Shown piece by piece: positions 4,128 through 40,827 of a stretch of 64,000 nucleotides of DNA. The first letter of the stretch is position 1. The number at the start of each line of letters is the position of its first letter. The notes beneath the pieces were generated by a model. That model did no database searches, was not told where the DNA came from, and worked only from the letters and a program-made list of their open reading frames with translations. The stretch covers positions 6,739 to 70,738 of the forward strand of contig JACPFR010000052.1 in assembly GCA_016182905.1 (NCBI GenBank), read 5' to 3'. This stretch comes from Elusimicrobiota bacterium. Its GTDB lineage: Bacteria > Elusimicrobiota > Elusimicrobia > UBA1565 > UBA9628. Made by a program: the position numbers and the translations under genes.

Positions 4128-4912
4128 GCGTGGAGCTCGTGCCGCAGGACCTCCCGGACGACCTCCCGGAGGAGAAACGGCTCCCGCTGTGGGACCACGT
4201 CGGCGAGTTCCGCGACCGCCTGATCAACAGCGCGATCGCCCTGTTCGTCGCGACCGCCTGCGGCTACTTCCTGCGCTTCCGCCTCTGGGACCTGGCCCAG
4301 CGTCCGCTGCGCGTCGCCGCGCCGGCTCTCGTGGCGCCCTTCACCTACACCGACCTGGCCGAGCCGTTCATCTCGATGATGCGCCTGTCCTTCTGGACCT
4401 CGGTGTTCGTCATCTCCCCTTACCTCTTCTATCAGGTCTGGGCCTTCGTCCGGCCGGCTCTGCGCGACCGCGAGCGGCGCATGGCCGTGACCTTCACGGC
4501 CGCGACGAGCGTGTGCTTCGTCGCGGGCGCCGTGTTCGCCTATTTCGTCGCCTTCCCCGTGCTGGCCAACGTCCTCCTCGACGAGGCCGGCCGGGCCGGC
4601 CTGCGCCCCAACCTGAAGCCCACCGAGTACCTGAACCTGTTCCTCTGCGTCGTGGTCGGCACGGGCGTCTCCTTCGAGGCGCCGGTGCTGTTCTACTTCC
4701 TCGCCCGCTTCCGGCTGGTGAGCGCGCGCGCGATGATCCGCTACTGGCGCGAGTCCACGGTGGCCATACTCGCCGCCTCGGCCTTCCTCACCCCCGGCGA
4801 CCTGATCGCGACGACCATCCTGTTCGGCGGCGTCCTGCTCGGCCTGTACTTCCTCTCGACGGCCGTCGTCTGGCTCGTCGAGCGCTCCCGCCCCGCCTCC
4901 TCGGACCTCTAG
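4124..4912 (+). CDS. tatC: twin-arginine translocase subunit TatC
   Basis: PLWDHVGEFRDRLI followed by six hydrophobic spans (PF...SVFVISPYLFYQVWAFV.PAL...E, GV.FE.PVL). GTG start overlaps the yraN-like stop. Confidence 0.87.
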   Translation: MSVELVPQDLPDDLPEEKRLPLWDHVGEFRDRLINSAIALFVATACGYFLRFRLWDLAQRPLRVAAPALVAPFTYTDLAEPFISMMRLSFWTSVFVISPYLFYQVWAFVRPALRDRERRMAVTFTAATSVCFVAGAVFAYFVAFPVLANVLLDEAGRAGLRPNLKPTEYLNLFLCVVVGTGVSFEAPVLFYFLARFRLVSARAMIRYWRESTVAILAASAFLTPGDLIATTILFGGVLLGLYFLSTAVVWLVERSRPASSDL

Positions 4913-20026: not shown

Positions 20027-20578
20027 TTAGAAGTAGCGATTAAAAGGCAGCTCGAGCTCGCGCTGGGACGGCTTGCGTCCGTCGAACAGCTGGCCGGGCT
20101 TGATCTCGTTGAGGAGCTGGTTGACCGCCCCGGCGGGCGACAGGGGCTGCGGGCCGGGGTCGTTGGGCACCAAGGCGGCCGCGGGCTCGTCGCCCTTGTC
20201 ATCGAGCAGGCTCCAGTTCAGGATGAAGGGCTCTTCGACGGCGCTGGGCGCGGGACGCCGCGCGGAGGCCAAAGCGGCGGGCGTCGGCAGGGGCAGGGGC
20301 GAGGGCACGCCGGGCAGGCGCGCGGGCCCGATCGCGGGCGCGGGGTACACGGGCAAGGAGGCCGGCGTGATGACGGTCACAATCACGGGGATCGCCTCGG
20401 GCTTGATGGTCGGGAGCGCGATGACCGCGTCGACCGAGGGCAGGATCATGGGGACGACCGGGCGGCTGGGGAGGACCACCGGGGCGATGTTGCCGAGCGT
20501 GGTGGGCAGCTTGTAGACGACCTGAGCGTGGGCCGAAGCCGCGAGTCCGAGGACGAGAGCGAGGGTTTTGAAGTGCAT
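20027..20578 (-). CDS. secreted Pro-rich hypothetical protein
   Basis: Signal peptide MHFKTLALVLGLAASAHA followed by a P/V/I-rich region. 183 aa. Confidence 0.5.
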   Translation of the reverse strand: MHFKTLALVLGLAASAHAQVVYKLPTTLGNIAPVVLPSRPVVPMILPSVDAVIALPTIKPEAIPVIVTVITPASLPVYPAPAIGPARLPGVPSPLPLPTPAALASARRPAPSAVEEPFILNWSLLDDKGDEPAAALVPNDPGPQPLSPAGAVNQLLNEIKPGQLFDGRKPSQRELELPFNRYF

Positions 20579-20700
20579 GGCGACATGGTAGCCCGGACCG
20601 GCGGCCCCCGACGAGGAGGGAGGTCAACGCCGCGCATTGACTTGAATCATGGGCCCTTCGGGTAAGCGAAAACAGAAAAAAACGGAATGCCTGTCACCGA

Positions 20701-37207: not shown

Positions 37208-37831
37208 ATGCCGAAGCTTTTCGTCAGCGATCATCCGCTCGTCCAGGACAAGCTCTCGCGCCTGCGCGACAGGAACACCAAGCCCGAGGATTTCCGCCGC
37301 CTGATGGCCGAGGTGGCCATGCTGATCGGCTGCGAGGTGCTCAAGGGCGTGCGCACGCGCAAGACGACGGTCCGTACGCCGCTTCAGACCGCGCCGGCCC
37401 TGATCCTCGACCAGCCGCTGACCTTCGTCGCGGTCCTGCGCGCGGGCCTGGGCATGACGCCGGGCCTGCTGGAGCTGGCGCCGAAGGCGTCCATCGGCCA
37501 CATCGGCCTCTACCGCGACGAGAAGACGCTCGAGCCCGTCCAGTACTACGTCCGCCTGCCCAAGAACATCTCGGGGCACTTCGTCGTGCTGTGCGACCCG
37601 ATGCTCGCCACCGGCGGCTCCGCCTCCGAGTCGATCCGCATCCTCAAGGCGCACGGCGCGAAGAACATCGCCCTGCTCACCTTGCTCTCCTCCCGGCGCG
37701 GCGTGGCCCGCATCCACAAGGACCACCCCGACGTCCCGGTGTACACCGCGGTGGTGGACTCCGTCCTCAACGCGAAGGGCTACATCGTCCCCGGCCTCGG
37801 CGATGCCGGCGACCGCCTCTTCAACACCTGA
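37208..37831 (+). CDS. upp: uracil phosphoribosyltransferase
   Basis: DHPLVQDKLS.LRD..T....FR.L..E...L......VAVLRAGLGM......IGHIGLYRDE.TL.PV.YY..LP....G..V.L.DPMLATGGSA......LK..GA..I...YIVPGLGDAGDRLFNT. Confidence 0.93.
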   Translation: MPKLFVSDHPLVQDKLSRLRDRNTKPEDFRRLMAEVAMLIGCEVLKGVRTRKTTVRTPLQTAPALILDQPLTFVAVLRAGLGMTPGLLELAPKASIGHIGLYRDEKTLEPVQYYVRLPKNISGHFVVLCDPMLATGGSASESIRILKAHGAKNIALLTLLSSRRGVARIHKDHPDVPVYTAVVDSVLNAKGYIVPGLGDAGDRLFNT

Positions 37832-37862
37832 TACGAGCCCGCGCTCCTCGTAAGAAATAAAA

Positions 37863-37886
37863 AGCCCCGACCATGAGGTCGGGGCT
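37863..37886 (-). terminator. intrinsic terminator of repeat-peptide gene A (may also stop upp read-through)
   Basis: agccccgacc-atga-ggtcggggct, a 10-bp GC stem. On the minus strand it is followed by TTTTTATTTC. Confidence 0.75.
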
Positions 37887-37907
37887 CACGCTTCGCTGGC
37901 GATCCGC

Positions 37908-38132
37908 TCAGCCGCACTTGTTCGGCCACACGCACGTCGTCACCGGGCCGGACGCGATCACGGGGGCCGGGACGCTCTTGCAAGTCTTGGGCCACACGCA
38001 GGGCTGGAACTGGGCCACGACGGGGGCCGGGGCGGACTTGCACGTGTTCGGCCACACGCAAGGGCGGAACTGGGCGGTGGCCTGAGGGGCCGGCGTCGCC
38101 GTCAGGAACGTCGCTAGAATCAAAGTCATCAT
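37908..38132 (-). CDS. small repeat peptide A (74 aa): hydrophobic N-terminus + three C-V-W-P-x-x-C units
   Basis: MMTLILATFLTATPAPQATA / QFRPCVWPNTCKS / APAPVVA / QFQPCVWPKTCKS / VPAPVIASGPVTT / CVWPNKCG. A strong SD (GGAAGGAGGA) lies 7 nt upstream. The repeats differ at synonymous sites. The gene has its own terminator. Confidence 0.75.
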   Translation of the reverse strand: MMTLILATFLTATPAPQATAQFRPCVWPNTCKSAPAPVVAQFQPCVWPKTCKSVPAPVIASGPVTTCVWPNKCG

Positions 38133-38211
38133 TTTCGTGTCCTCCTTCCTTCTGAAGACAGAGTAACTCTTGCCTCGCGCCGGCCTGGAGGACGCCTGTC
38201 AATTTTGGAAC

Positions 38212-38239
38212 TTGATCCCGCTCACTTGATCGCGCTCAA
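38212..38239. promoter_or_regulatory. two abutting FNR/CRP-like half-conserved boxes upstream of peptide gene A
   Basis: TTGATcccgCTCAC (38212-38225) and TTGATcgcgCTCAA (38226-38239), compared with the consensus TTGAT-N4-ATCAA. They lie 80-107 nt upstream of the ATG at 38132. Confidence 0.4.
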
Positions 38240-38340
38240 TGGTTCGGGCCCTTCCGCGGGGAGCAGGAATTGCGTTTCCCTCCATTTTAGTTCCGCGCCG
38301 GAGGTGAAATGAACCGATACGCAATCGCTGAATTGCCGCC

Positions 38341-38364
38341 GGAACTCGCACCGGTGCGAGTTCC
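38341..38364. repeat. perfect 24-bp palindrome in the spacer between peptide genes A and B
   Basis: ggaactcgcacc|ggtgcgagttcc is self-complementary with no loop. Confidence 0.6.
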
Positions 38365-38390
38365 TCCCTCCTCGCGGCCGGCCAAAGAAG

Positions 38391-38418
38391 GGGAGCCTCC
38401 GAGGGGTCGGAGGCTCCC
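38391..38418 (-). terminator. intrinsic terminator of repeat-peptide gene B
   Basis: gggagcctccga-gggg-tcggaggctccc, a 12-bp stem. On the minus strand it is followed by CTTCTTTGG. Confidence 0.7.
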
Positions 38419-38444
38419 GTACGTCGCGCCGGTTCGAGGTCGGC

Positions 38445-38654
38445 TTACAGAGCGATGAGGCTCGGAGCGGCTTTCTTCTTCCCGCAGGTCTTGGGCCAGA
38501 CGCAGGTCGAGAACTGGGCGACGACCGGGGCCGGGGCGGTTTGGGGCGCGGGAGCGACCCGGCAGGTGTTGGGCCACACGCAGGGACGGAACTGAGCCGT
38601 CTTCGGCGCGGGAGCGGCGTTGAACAGCGAGAGCGTCAGGATGAGGTTGATCAT
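38445..38654 (-). CDS. small repeat peptide B (69 aa): hydrophobic N-terminus + two C-V-W-P-x-x-C units
   Basis: MINLILTLSLFNAAPAPKT / AQFRPCVWPNTCRV / APAPQTAPAPVV / AQFSTCVWPKTCGK / KKAAPSLIAL. ATG at 38654 was chosen within the longer ORF by homology of the N-terminus to peptide C. Confidence 0.7.
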   Translation of the reverse strand: MINLILTLSLFNAAPAPKTAQFRPCVWPNTCRVAPAPQTAPAPVVAQFSTCVWPKTCGKKKAAPSLIAL

Positions 38655-38711
38655 GGAGACAGTGTACTCCGCCCCCGAAAAACCCCCTAGGAGGACGGTC
38701 AATGCCGTCTT

Positions 38712-38725
38712 TTGATGCTCGTCAT
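38712..38725. promoter_or_regulatory. degenerate FNR-like box upstream of peptide gene B
   Basis: TTGATgctcGTCAT. Its centre is 64.5 nt upstream of the ATG, the same spacing as the perfect box upstream of gene C. Confidence 0.3.
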
Positions 38726-38779
38726 TAATGTGCCCGCAATCGGGCCGACACGATCCGTTCAAACGGCGTCATAAAAAGA

Positions 38780-38807
38780 AGAAGACCCCGAGGGGTCGGG
38801 GTCTTCT
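38780..38807 (-). terminator. intrinsic terminator of repeat-peptide gene C
   Basis: agaagaccccga-gggg-tcggggtcttct, a 12-bp stem. On the minus strand it is followed by TCTTTTTAT. Confidence 0.75.
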
Positions 38808-38839
38808 CACGGCGCCGGTTCGAGGTCGGCTTTAAAGTC

Positions 38840-39100
38840 TCAGGCTTTCTTGCCGCACTTGCGCGGGTACACGCAGGTGGTGAACTGGGCGACTTCGACC
38901 ACCGGGGCGGTCTCGGTCTTGCACACGTTCGGCCACACGCAGGGCCGGAACTGGGCGACGGTCACGGGAGCCGGAGCGGTTTGGGTCGCGGGAGCGACCC
39001 GGCACACGTTGGGCCACACGCAGGGCCGGAACTGGGCCGTCTGGGTCGCCGGGGCGGGGTTGAAGGTCGAGAGCGAGAGCGTCAGAATCAGGTTGATCAT
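38840..39100 (-). CDS. small repeat peptide C (86 aa): hydrophobic N-terminus + three C-V-[WY]-P-x-x-C units
   Basis: MINLILTLSLSTFNPAPATQT / AQFRPCVWPNVCRV / APATQTAPAPVTV / AQFRPCVWPNVCKT / ETAPVVEV / AQFTTCVYPRKCGKKA. ATG at 39100. Confidence 0.72.
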   Translation of the reverse strand: MINLILTLSLSTFNPAPATQTAQFRPCVWPNVCRVAPATQTAPAPVTVAQFRPCVWPNVCKTETAPVVEVAQFTTCVYPRKCGKKA

Positions 39101-39157
39101 GCATACAGTATAACGCGCATGATTGTAACTTCCGATGAGATGGGACAACCTGGAAGC

Positions 39158-39171
39158 TTGATGTTTATCAA
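39158..39171. promoter_or_regulatory. perfect FNR/CRP-family palindrome TTGAT-GTTT-ATCAA upstream of peptide gene C
   Basis: An exact match to the FNR consensus TTGAT-N4-ATCAA. It lies between the regulator stop (39231) and the peptide C start (39100). A TATACT hexamer is at 39107-39112 (minus strand). Confidence 0.6.
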
Positions 39172-39230
39172 TTGATCTAGGTCAAAGGTCCTAGATCGGC
39201 TGGGCCGCGGGCCCAGAGGAACTCTGAGCC

Positions 39231-39938
39231 TTAGGACGCAGAACCGGCGAGCGCGCGGAGGCGCTCTTCGGAGAGGATCAGGAGATCCTTCTCCTTCTTG
39301 CGCAGGACGTCGCGCTCCTCGAAGTCCTTGAGCAGGCGCACCGTGGTCTCGATGGTGAGGCCCGCCATCTCGGCGAGATCGCGGCGCTTGATGCCGGCGA
39401 CGATCGGGTAGGGCTTCTTGGGCGCCATCATGCGGATCAAGGTGTCGGCCAGGCGGCCGCGCGCGGGCTTGAAGGCGATGTCGCGCGCCTTGTTCTCGCC
39501 CCGGCGCACGTCCTTGGCGAGCTCCTTGAGCAGGGCGTGGGAGGCGGGCGGATACTTGGCGAGGAAGTTGTAGAAGGTGGTCTTGTCGATCATCGACACG
39601 ATGCTGGGCTCGAGGGCCTCGCCGGTTGCGGTGTAGGCGCCCTCGTCGGAGAGCAAGGTCACATGGCCTAACAGGTCGCCGGGCGACTCGACGCGGGTGG
39701 TGAGCTGCTGGCCGGTGCGGCTCGACTTGTAGACCTTCACCTTGCCCGTGCAGACGACATAGACGCCCTGGGGCATCGCGCCTTCGTGGAAGACCACCTC
39801 GCCGCGCTTGTGCGGGTGCGCGAGGCGGATCTCCCGCCAGGCCTTCTTCGACTCCTTCGTGCCGAGGAGCTCGTAGAAACAGTTCTTCTTAAAGGGGCAC
39901 CAATCGCAATTGGGCGCGTCTCGCTTCGAGTAAGCCAC
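39231..39938 (-). CDS. Crp/Fnr-family transcriptional regulator, FNR-like (N-terminal Cys cluster)
   Basis: N-terminal C11-X2-C14-X5-C20 (NCDWCPFKKNC). A cNMP-binding-like beta-roll follows (FHEGAMPQGVYVVCTGKVKVY......G.LLG). The C-terminal HTH GLTIETTVRLLKDF resembles E. coli FNR GLTVETISRLLGRF. Confidence 0.85.
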   Translation of the reverse strand: MAYSKRDAPNCDWCPFKKNCFYELLGTKESKKAWREIRLAHPHKRGEVVFHEGAMPQGVYVVCTGKVKVYKSSRTGQQLTTRVESPGDLLGHVTLLSDEGAYTATGEALEPSIVSMIDKTTFYNFLAKYPPASHALLKELAKDVRRGENKARDIAFKPARGRLADTLIRMMAPKKPYPIVAGIKRRDLAEMAGLTIETTVRLLKDFEERDVLRKKEKDLLILSEERLRALAGSAS

Positions 39939-39954
39939 AAGTCATTATAGCAAC

Positions 39955-40827
39955 TTAAGAGCGAGGAGGCAGGATGCGCATCTCTTCGGCGCCGCTTTTG
40001 CCCACTCCGGCGCCGGGGAACACCGCGCCGTAGCGGCCCGAGGCGTCGACGCCCCGGGCGACGGTCGCGAGGCTTCCCGACATGGCGGCGCGGGCGCCGT
40101 CGGACCTCAGGAGATGGGCGCCCTCCCACCGGCCGCCGTTCAAGGTCGTGCGCGTCGCGAGCGCGGGGCGTCCCTCGTTGCCGTGCCGCAGTCCTCCCTC
40201 GAGGCGGAACTGGTCGATCGAATGGACTCTCTTAAAGGAAAGGGGCTTCAGCGAGCCGTCCGCAGCGAGCAGGCCGGGGACCGGGAACTGGTAGCCGGCG
40301 GCGGCGCCGTTCCGCCCGGCGCGGCGCACGGAGAGCCGGGCGGAGCCGTCGGGCAGGGCGCGCAAGGTCAGGGCGAAGCGGTCGCCGGGGCGCAGGTAGA
40401 GGTCGTCGGGGGCGCCGACGGCGGGGTTCTGCCAGCCGCCCTTGCTCGTGCGCCAGTACACGCGGTAGGCGAACTCGCCGGTGTCGCGGCCGTCCGCGCC
40501 GTAGACGTGGTCCCAGATCAGGCCGGCGTCGACCTCGGCCCCTTCGGCGTGCAGGCCGAGGTAGACGTCGGGGCGGTCGAGCGGGCCGGATTTATAGGAC
40601 TCCTCTCCGGGGGCGGCGCGGTGCTCGCGCGCGGGGTCGAAGACGGGCTTGGGCAGGACGCCCCAGGCCTCGAGGCCCTCGAACGCGGCGCCCTCGGGCG
40701 AGACGACCTTGCGGAACCACGCCCCGCGGGCTTTCTCGACGATCGCGGACGCGGACGCGGACGCGTATTCGAGCTCTCCGGCCGAGGCCGGCATCACCGC
40801 CGACAGCACGAGGCAGACGAAAGTCAT
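39955..40827 (-). CDS. secreted hypothetical protein
   Basis: Signal-like N-terminus MTFVCLVLSAVMPASA. 290 aa with no recognised motif. Located 16 nt upstream of the regulator gene. Confidence 0.55.
   Translation of the reverse strand: MTFVCLVLSAVMPASAGELEYASASASAIVEKARGAWFRKVVSPEGAAFEGLEAWGVLPKPVFDPAREHRAAPGEESYKSGPLDRPDVYLGLHAEGAEVDAGLIWDHVYGADGRDTGEFAYRVYWRTSKGGWQNPAVGAPDDLYLRPGDRFALTLRALPDGSARLSVRRAGRNGAAAGYQFPVPGLLAADGSLKPLSFKRVHSIDQFRLEGGLRHGNEGRPALATRTTLNGGRWEGAHLLRSDGARAAMSGSLATVARGVDASGRYGAVFPGAGVGKSGAEEMRILPPRS

Follow-up and report, generated by a model that had tools for sequence, protein, structure and literature searches.

Genes and Features of the Locus

The locus described here lies on the minus strand of a 64-kilobase (kb) stretch of an Elusimicrobiota genome (contig JACPFR010000052.1), hereafter called the window, and consists of a gene for a Crp/Fnr-fold regulator followed by three small peptide genes. 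The regulator gene (39231..39938) has a GTG start and encodes 235 amino acids (aa). It is followed on the same strand by the genes for peptide C (38840..39100, 86 aa), peptide B (38445..38654, 69 aa) and peptide A (37908..38132, 74 aa). An intrinsic terminator follows each of the peptide genes: that of peptide C has a 13-base pair (bp) stem followed by a T-run (38779..38808, minus), and those of peptides B and A lie at 38391-38418 and 37862-37887, respectively. The region between the regulator and peptide C contains a perfect FNR-type palindrome, TTGATgtttATCAA. From the comparisons presented below, the locus very probably holds an FNR-like regulator with a relocated fourth cysteine, which controls an uncharacterised, phylum-restricted peptide family.

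The peptide family comprises 147 clusters, all of them annotated as hypothetical and carrying organism names from Elusimicrobia only. No Pfam domain was found in the 147 clusters, and the three window peptides gave no match in Pfam or in NCBIfam. The precursors are about 80 aa long, start with MINLIL or similar and lack a positively charged region at this end. Each has two to four cores with the consensus (V/T)AQF(R/T)(P/T)CVWP(N/R/K)xC as well as variable Ala/Pro/Thr-rich linkers; peptide C contains three cores of the form AQF(R/T)(P/T)CV(W/Y)P(N/R)xC. As the cores are conserved and the linkers and the copy number are variable, we speculate that the peptides are multi-core precursors that are processed. 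The conserved Ala-Gln before each core would, equally speculatively, allow cleavage to peptides with an N-terminal Gln. No gene for a maturation enzyme was seen adjoining the peptide genes.

Fold and Family of the Regulator

The regulator protein begins MAYSKRDAPNCDWCPFKKNCFYELL and has cysteines only at positions 11, 14, 20 and 63. Pfam searches detected a cNMP_binding domain (PF00027) at residues 43-129 (E = 7.9e-20; score of 71 bits, cut-off 27.5), an HTH_Crp_2 domain (PF13545; E = 5.2e-12; 46 bits against a cut-off of 27) and a match to Crp (PF00325; 22.6 bits against a cut-off of 21). Both the beta-roll and the helix-turn-helix of the Crp/Fnr superfamily are thus recognised, and by its domains the regulator is a member of this superfamily. 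The regulator was compared by BLASTP with sequences of E. coli FNR and E. coli CRP that were entered by hand. E. coli FNR is 26% identical to the regulator over the full length, and in this alignment C11, C14 and C20 are paired with C20, C23 and C29 of FNR, C63 with R72 and S115 with C122. In the recognition helix (GLTIETTVRLL in the regulator, GLTVETISRLL in FNR) E197, V200 and R201 correspond to E209, S212 and R213. An earlier note on this DNA, made from the sequence alone, had described a 235-aa Crp/Fnr protein whose C11-X2-C14-X5-C20 has the spacing of the FNR ligands; the open reading frame (ORF), Pfam and the alignment agree with that description. It had also pointed to a recognition helix close to that of FNR with the Glu and the Arg kept, and these two residues, E197 and R201, proved to be invariant in all 81 orthologues compared (see below).

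Among solved structures, the CRPs of cyclic AMP (cAMP) type are the top-scoring matches over the beta-roll and the helix-turn-helix (E = 6e-19 to 2e-18). The N-terminus of the regulator is reached only by alignments to FNR, namely those of the Aliivibrio fischeri FNR structures (residues 8-234) and of the NCBIfam Fnr model NF008365 (residues 8-233). The score for the latter is 61.1 bits and thus below the threshold of the model, which is 228. In the alignment with E. coli CRP the residues that contact the phosphate and ribose of cAMP, E72, R82 and S83, correspond to H92, Y102 and T103 of the regulator. Binding of cAMP was therefore rejected. Because the C122 position has no Cys and the score of 61 bits is far from the NCBIfam cut-off, the regulator is not FNR proper either. 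Judged by these alignments it is an FNR-like protein that stands outside FNR proper and is no cAMP receptor. The earlier designation as an FNR-type protein thus holds for the fold, the Cys triad and the Glu and Arg of the recognition helix, but not for the C122 position nor for the family score.

All named homologues of the regulator are from Elusimicrobiota, with 68-95% identity. When 1.8 billion cluster representatives were searched exhaustively, just 18 came out at E < 1e-30, so that the orthologues form a tight clade. A genome scan yielded 80 species-level Elusimicrobiota loci, which together with the window protein give a set of 81 orthologous proteins. In this set, where identity goes down to 55%, C11, C14, C20, C63, S115, E197, T198, V200 and R201 are invariant in 81/81 sequences. 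The 81-orthologue alignment has no further Cys-rich columns.

Cys63 as the Candidate Fourth Ligand

We surveyed the Cys patterns of the nearest representatives at 50% clustering, 71 of which carry an N-terminal C-X2-C-Xn-C. Within this group 38 show the C63 cysteine without the C122-equivalent and 26 the C122-equivalent without C63, while five have both and two have neither (Fisher p = 3e-12, calculated on sequences that are not phylogenetically independent). C-X2-C-X5-C together with C63 alone occurs in 26 representatives, and the same triad together with C115 alone in one sequence, the E. coli FNR that had been added by hand. The single further Cys and its displacement relative to C122 had already been pointed out in the earlier note; we can add that C63 is invariant and alternates almost exclusively with the C122-equivalent among the relatives. 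As Cys63 and Cys115 are almost mutually exclusive among relatives with the N-terminal triad, Cys63 is likely to be the fourth cluster ligand, and the alternation is the best available evidence that it completes the ligand set of a cofactor of the same kind. In FNR, S73 and T118 share one surface patch, activating region 1, according to genetics. Hence FNR residue 72, the counterpart of C63, would be expected on a strand neighbouring that of C122. Iron-sulfur ligation with C63 as the fourth ligand, along with a redox or O2 signal, is plausible, and we lean towards it with moderate confidence. The literature that we searched on Elusimicrobia FNR, on the Cys positions of HcpR2 and on alternative fourth ligands in Crp/Fnr proteins contained nothing describing the C11/C14/C20/C63 pattern.

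FNR-Type Boxes in the Window

Box sites were counted by their mismatches to the TTGAT-N4-ATCAA palindrome over the 64 kb, and 100 shuffles served as the control. The window has one perfect site. Sites with at most one mismatch number three, where 0.24 are expected; none of the 100 shuffles reached three, and all three sites lie upstream of peptide genes. With up to two mismatches there are 19 sites against 4.8 expected.

The perfect site, TTGATGTTTATCAA, occupies 39158..39171. It lies 59 nucleotides (nt) past the regulator stop, with its centre 64.5 nt away from the first base (39100) of the ATG of peptide C, so that the exact palindrome and its distance to the peptide start were found as reported earlier. 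The perfect site is the middle one of three FNR-type boxes in the promoter of peptide C (promoter C), all read on the minus strand. Box 1 (39172..39185, TTGACCTAGATCAA) has one mismatch, is centred at about -78.5 and abuts box 2, which is the perfect site (TTGATAAACATCAA in the minus-strand reading) with its centre at about -64.5. Box 3 (39135..39148, TTGTCCCATCTCAT) is a degenerate FNR-type site centred at -41.5 from the predicted transcription start. The -10 hexamer TATACT is found at 39107..39112, 6 nt before the ATG. From 5′ to 3′ on the minus strand, the sequence past the regulator stop thus reads: hairpins, CTAGGACCT, box 1, box 2, 9 nt, box 3, 22 nt, TATACT, 6 nt and ATG. TTGACC of box 3 was considered as a -35 hexamer and rejected, the spacing to the -10 hexamer being a fixed 30 nt.

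The same promoter build is common to all three peptide genes of the window. In promoter B (minus), box 2 at 38712..38725 (ATGACGAGCATCAA) has two mismatches and is centred 64.5 nt before the ATG at 38654, box 3 lies at 38689..38702 (TTGACCGTCCTCCT), and the -10 hexamer TACACT at 38661-38666 is again followed by 6 nt and the ATG; box 1 is degenerate. Promoter A (minus) has boxes 1 and 2 at 38212..38239, where TTGAGCGCGATCAA (one mismatch) abuts GTGAGCGGGATCAA (two mismatches), box 3 at 38189..38202 (TTGACAGGCGTCCT) and a -10-like TACTCT at 38160-38165, from which a leader with a GGAGG Shine-Dalgarno sequence runs to the ATG at 38132.

A further element, CTAGGACCT, is located immediately 5′ of box 1 at 39186-39197 (minus) and is conserved at the same position in loci L001-L032. 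In the window this region and box 1 make up an inverted repeat of 8 bp (GATCTAGG...CCTAGATC), the arms of which do not covary in locus L002. The element could be a remnant or bind another protein. An Rfam search over 37500-40300 gave no family at E < 0.1; by this measure the conserved intergenic elements correspond to no known RNA.

Association of Regulator, Boxes and Peptide Genes Across Elusimicrobiota

The loci amount to 590 kb of sequence, for which expected site numbers were obtained from first-order Markov simulations. Perfect sites occur 14 times, compared with 0.1 expected, and sites with at most one mismatch 97 times, compared with 5.8 expected. Out of the latter, 79 are in the 120 nt that precede called peptide genes, a region that makes up 1.5% of the sequence. 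The earlier note had asked how rare a perfect site is; with one perfect site in the window and these numbers for the loci, good sites are rare and specific. In a wider test, which allowed up to 320 nt upstream of any peptide motif and included the window, 14 sites were unlinked. Ten of these are inside ORFs of at least 240 aa, and most of the unlinked sites outside long ORFs are at variant peptide genes.

Peptide genes downstream of the regulator were counted by the motif C-x-[WFY]-P-x-x-C in the 77 loci that have enough sequence past the regulator, with a limit of 400 nt from its stop. Such a gene was found in 49 of the 77 loci. A box lies between the regulator and the peptide gene in all 49 cases if two mismatches are allowed, and in 44 of the 49 if one is allowed. 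In loci L052-L054 the peptide genes are 1.3-2.6 kb away from the regulator, and the box stays beside the peptide gene. The boxes are by this conservation a real cis element of the peptide-gene promoters, tied to peptide genes in at least 49 species. Comparative genomics supports the link between regulator, box and peptide well, and we hold it with high confidence; the regulator very probably controls the adjacent peptide genes. The proposal that the perfect box is aimed at the adjacent peptide gene was therefore borne out insofar as every close regulator-peptide pair has a box, but the perfect box is only the middle of three, and the flanking ones are more conserved. Likewise, promoter C stands as a predicted target by its conserved boxes, but it shares its build with the promoters of genes A and B.

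In about 60 loci the order of the backbone is kept, namely a TPR protein, in some cases a 290-aa protein, the regulator, and then upp and PNP in the convergent orientation. The peptide genes form a variable cassette of zero to three or more copies between the regulator and the convergent upp. We found no comparable circuit of regulator, box and peptide described for Elusimicrobiota in the literature searched.

In locus L077 a full promoter with box 2, box 3 and TACAAT follows the regulator (4717-4830) and has no recognisable peptide ORF behind it. Such an arrangement could reflect a variant peptide, a small RNA or a cassette that has decayed.

Promoter Geometry and Predicted Transcription Start

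We stacked 42 non-identical peptide promoters from the loci, anchored on TAYACT. The conserved columns of the stack are box 2 (nTGAn-N4-ATCAA), box 3 (TTGAC-N4-(C/G)TCAT) and the -10 hexamer, with no length variation between them. In a stricter geometry scan of 75 detected peptide promoters, the spacing of 23 bp from box 2 to box 3 and of 36 nt from box 3 to the start of the -10 hexamer was fixed in 46, and T2, G3 and C12 of box 3 were invariant in 46/46 of these. The distance from box 1 to box 2, counting sites with up to two mismatches, is 14 bp in 22 promoters and 13 bp in ten. Across species, box 3 (39135-39148 in the window) and box 1 (39172-39185) are more conserved than the perfect box 2, and in close relatives box 1, TTGACC(T/C)AGATCAA, is the most conserved upstream box. 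More distant lineages have one strong upstream box, often a perfect TTGATCTAGATCAA, at 23 bp from box 3.

In 29 of the 42 promoters TAYACT begins 12 nt upstream of the ATG, so that the end of the hexamer is 6 nt from the ATG. In other lineages a leader of 20-50 nt containing GGAGAAAG comes after the same -10. Lineages with the ATG 6 nt after the -10 alternate with lineages that have a Shine-Dalgarno leader on the same -10, and this alternation pins down the likely start site. In the simplest reading, transcription would start 7 nt after the -10 hexamer, which would give leaderless mRNAs for genes B and C and place the box centres at -41.5, -64.5 and -78.5.

CRP/FNR activators of class II have their site at -41.5 in a promoter that lacks a -35 element. 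A scan of 37700-40100 found no sigma-70 -35/-10 pair, and the centre of box 3 is 41.5 nt from the predicted start, which corresponds to the class II arrangement. Because the promoters have a good -10 (TAYACT) without a -35 and box 3 is in the class II position, and because the loop that aligns with FNR activating region 3, including FNR G85 (G76 in the regulator), hardly varies, activation appears likelier than repression, and we are fairly confident of this from the promoter sequences.

Proposed Mechanism and Alternative Explanations

We propose the following mechanism. Constitutive expression from an extended -10 promoter of its own would supply the regulator, and C11, C14 and C20 of the N-terminal extension, together with C63 of the beta-roll in the role of FNR C122, would most likely hold an iron-sulfur cluster. 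In the cluster-bearing state, under anoxic or reducing conditions, the dimer is predicted to bind boxes of the TTGAY-N4-ATCAA type before all three peptide genes: a weak one at about -41.5, which overlaps the position of a -35 element as in class II promoters, and one or two stronger ones at about -64.5 and -78.5. Binding would most likely activate transcription, with genes B and C giving leaderless mRNAs that start at the ATG and each gene ending at its own terminator. An FNR-like iron-sulfur sensor that activates peptide genes in this manner is, taken as a whole, a moderately probable account of the locus.

Several observations speak against parts of this account. The Cys equivalent to C122 is absent, Ser115 taking its place in 81/81 orthologues, and an AlphaFold2 model built on a 24-sequence alignment (mean predicted local distance difference test score, pLDDT, of 58; residues 1-26 below 50) is too poor to place C63 relative to the triad. 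The FNR dimer-switch residues R140, I151 and D154 are replaced by S133, V144 and G147, and as they are not kept, a monomer-dimer switch in the style of FNR cannot be assumed. FNR Ser212 reads the first T of TTGAT; the regulator has an invariant Val200 instead, and in line with the replacement the first position of box 2 varies (T 21, A 18, G 7). Box 3 has three to four mismatches to the palindrome and could serve another factor. The upstream boxes at -64.5 and -78.5 are off the class I positions of E. coli (-61.5, -71.5, ...); two dimers 14 bp apart would sit on different faces of the DNA, and we know of no characterised precedent for such an arrangement. Finally, the regulator is kept without peptide genes in loci L020, L024, L029 and L038, where upp follows directly after it. 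Its retention in housekeeping synteny without peptides suggests that it is a core gene, the main or wider regulon of which may lie elsewhere, and that it is probably not dedicated to the peptides.

The relocated fourth Cys and the missing dimer-switch residues would also suit a protein that regulates the same targets in response to a signal other than oxygen, the cysteines binding a structural or regulatory metal (Zn or [2Fe-2S]), reacting with nitric oxide (NO) or sulfide, or forming a thiol-disulfide switch. Other members of the superfamily, such as FLP, CprK, FixK2 and PrfA, use Cys oxidation or other cofactors. PrfA, for example, has redox-active cysteines (PMC12937710). Moreover, many of the Elusimicrobiota concerned are probably anaerobes, which would have a less obvious use for an O2 switch. 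On the other side, the regulator has exactly four invariant cysteines with three of them in the C-X2-C-X5-C spacing of FNR, and the near-exclusive alternation of C63 and the C122-equivalent is what one expects of interchangeable fourth ligands of one cluster. We regard a different signal as unlikely, while giving it some weight. Repression by the regulator, where occupancy at -41.5 would block RNA polymerase, the upstream boxes would cooperate and the peptides would be made when the sensor is inactive, seems a little less likely again. Box 3 does overlap the RNA polymerase binding region, multiple adjacent and even abutting sites are common in repressor operators, and FNR itself represses some promoters via multiple sites. 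But the promoters have no -35 and look activator-dependent, the box centre matches the class II position as closely as the predicted start allows and is conserved across lineages, and the loop aligned with activating region 3 hardly varies.

The boxes might also be read by a Crp/Fnr paralogue encoded elsewhere, as one genome often has several, or the palindrome might belong to a terminator hairpin of the regulator gene, as box 1 can pair with the upstream CTAGG arm in an 8-bp hairpin; the adjacency of regulator and peptides would then be coincidental. Against this, the adjacency of regulator, box and peptide recurs in 49 of 77 species-level loci, and the 64-kb window has no second Crp/Fnr gene. 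The terminator hairpin was rejected as the main explanation of box 1, because the arms do not covary in L002 and such boxes are also present at promoters well away from the 3′ end of the regulator gene (A and B in the window; L052-L054). We consider a coincidental adjacency very improbable, and the regulator itself is the predicted reader of the boxes.

If the FNR-like mechanism applies, the locus offers a concrete circuit at base-pair resolution, with sensor, three operator boxes, promoter, predicted start and targets, for a phylum with almost no cultured members. It would mark the peptide family as conditionally expressed and point to the conditions in which to seek its product. The alternation of Cys63 and Cys122 among the relatives would serve as a natural experiment on the tuning of O2 and NO reactivity by the surroundings of the cluster.

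Comparison with Known Systems

FNR of E. coli and Aliivibrio fischeri is a [4Fe-4S] O2 sensor (PDB 5E44/5CVR; PMC4672761). The regulator shares with it the Crp/Fnr fold, a C-X2-C-X5-C extension at the N-terminus that aligns residue for residue, the Glu and Arg of the recognition helix, and predicted targets of the TTGAT-N4-ATCAA type, with a site at about -41.5 where the promoter lacks a -35. It differs in having a shorter N-terminus before the first Cys, Ser in place of C122 and an invariant Cys where FNR has R72. Its promoters also add boxes at -64.5 and -78.5, these two abutting, and its known (predicted) targets are small peptide genes and not respiratory operons as for FNR.

In Bacillus subtilis Fnr the cluster is reportedly held by three C-terminal cysteines and Asp141 (cited in PMC12937710, ref. 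59). This protein is a precedent for a [4Fe-4S] sensor of FNR type in which the set and the location of the ligands are unlike those of E. coli FNR. The regulator differs from it as well, since its triad is N-terminal, the fourth ligand is presumably Cys63, and no Cys follows residue 63. With the CRPs of T. thermophilus (4EV0), M. tuberculosis (Rv3676, 3H3U) and E. coli it has the beta-roll and helix-turn-helix in common, but it is unlike them in its N-terminal Cys extension and in the replaced cAMP contacts. The recognition Arg180 of CRP is an Ile in the regulator, and TTGA is therefore the predicted half-site instead of GTGA.

Metagenomic Crp/Fnr proteins (P0122-P0125, P0131, P0136 and others; 26 representatives at 50% clustering among the nearest 150) have the four cysteines in the same pattern and likewise an E--(V/I)R helix. 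These Cys63-type proteins are 30-47% identical to the regulator and uncharacterised, and one carries an Elusimicrobia name. Tentatively, the combination of C-X2-C-X5-C with a beta-roll Cys replacing C122 could define a distinct, widespread and uncharacterised class of iron-sulfur Crp/Fnr sensors, in which the cluster environment, and hence the signal or the sensitivity, would be unlike that of FNR. In Elusimicrobiota such a sensor might gate phylum-specific multi-core Cys-X-Trp-Pro-X-X-Cys peptides, possibly processed to small disulfide-looped or otherwise modified secreted peptides, via an unusual three-box promoter that drives leaderless mRNAs. We offer this wider picture as a possibility about which we are doubtful.

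Surroundings of the Regulator Gene and a Candidate Fourth Promoter

An extended -10 (TGCTATAAT) is found at 39944..39952 on the minus strand, right after the stop of the upstream gene and 5 nt before the GTG of the regulator, which implies a leaderless or near-leaderless regulator transcript. The motif aGTTGCTATAAT is conserved 5-8 nt before the regulator start codon in most loci; of the 78 compared, 58 use ATG and 20 use GTG as the start. There is no FNR-type box with two or fewer mismatches between 39441 and 41586, and autoregulation was rejected since the window has no box upstream of the regulator and, across the loci, L040 alone has a perfect site there.

The gene directly upstream of the regulator (39955-40827, minus) encodes the 290-aa protein mentioned above, which has a signal-peptide-like N-terminus and is found in 12 of the 80 loci. 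It has no Pfam or NCBIfam match.

A composite scan returned a candidate fourth promoter of the same build at 20579..20650 (minus), consisting of ATGATTCAAGTCAA, 9 nt, TTGACCTCCCTCCT, 23 nt, TACCAT, 6 nt and the ATG at 20578. It precedes a gene for a secreted Pro-rich protein of 183 aa (20027-20578), situated between TonB-like and TPR genes. The boxes are kept in two metagenome relatives, the spacers vary, and one of the relatives has a Shine-Dalgarno leader and is not leaderless. With two mismatches and conservation in close relatives only, these features hint weakly that the site might be a fourth promoter of this type.

Directly after the regulator stop lie GC-rich hairpins (39200..39230, minus), a possible terminator without a U-tract. 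The RNA fold of 39150-39240 has an energy of -32.6 kcal/mol (z = -3.47), and the motif tgggccNNNggccca at these hairpins recurs in close relatives.

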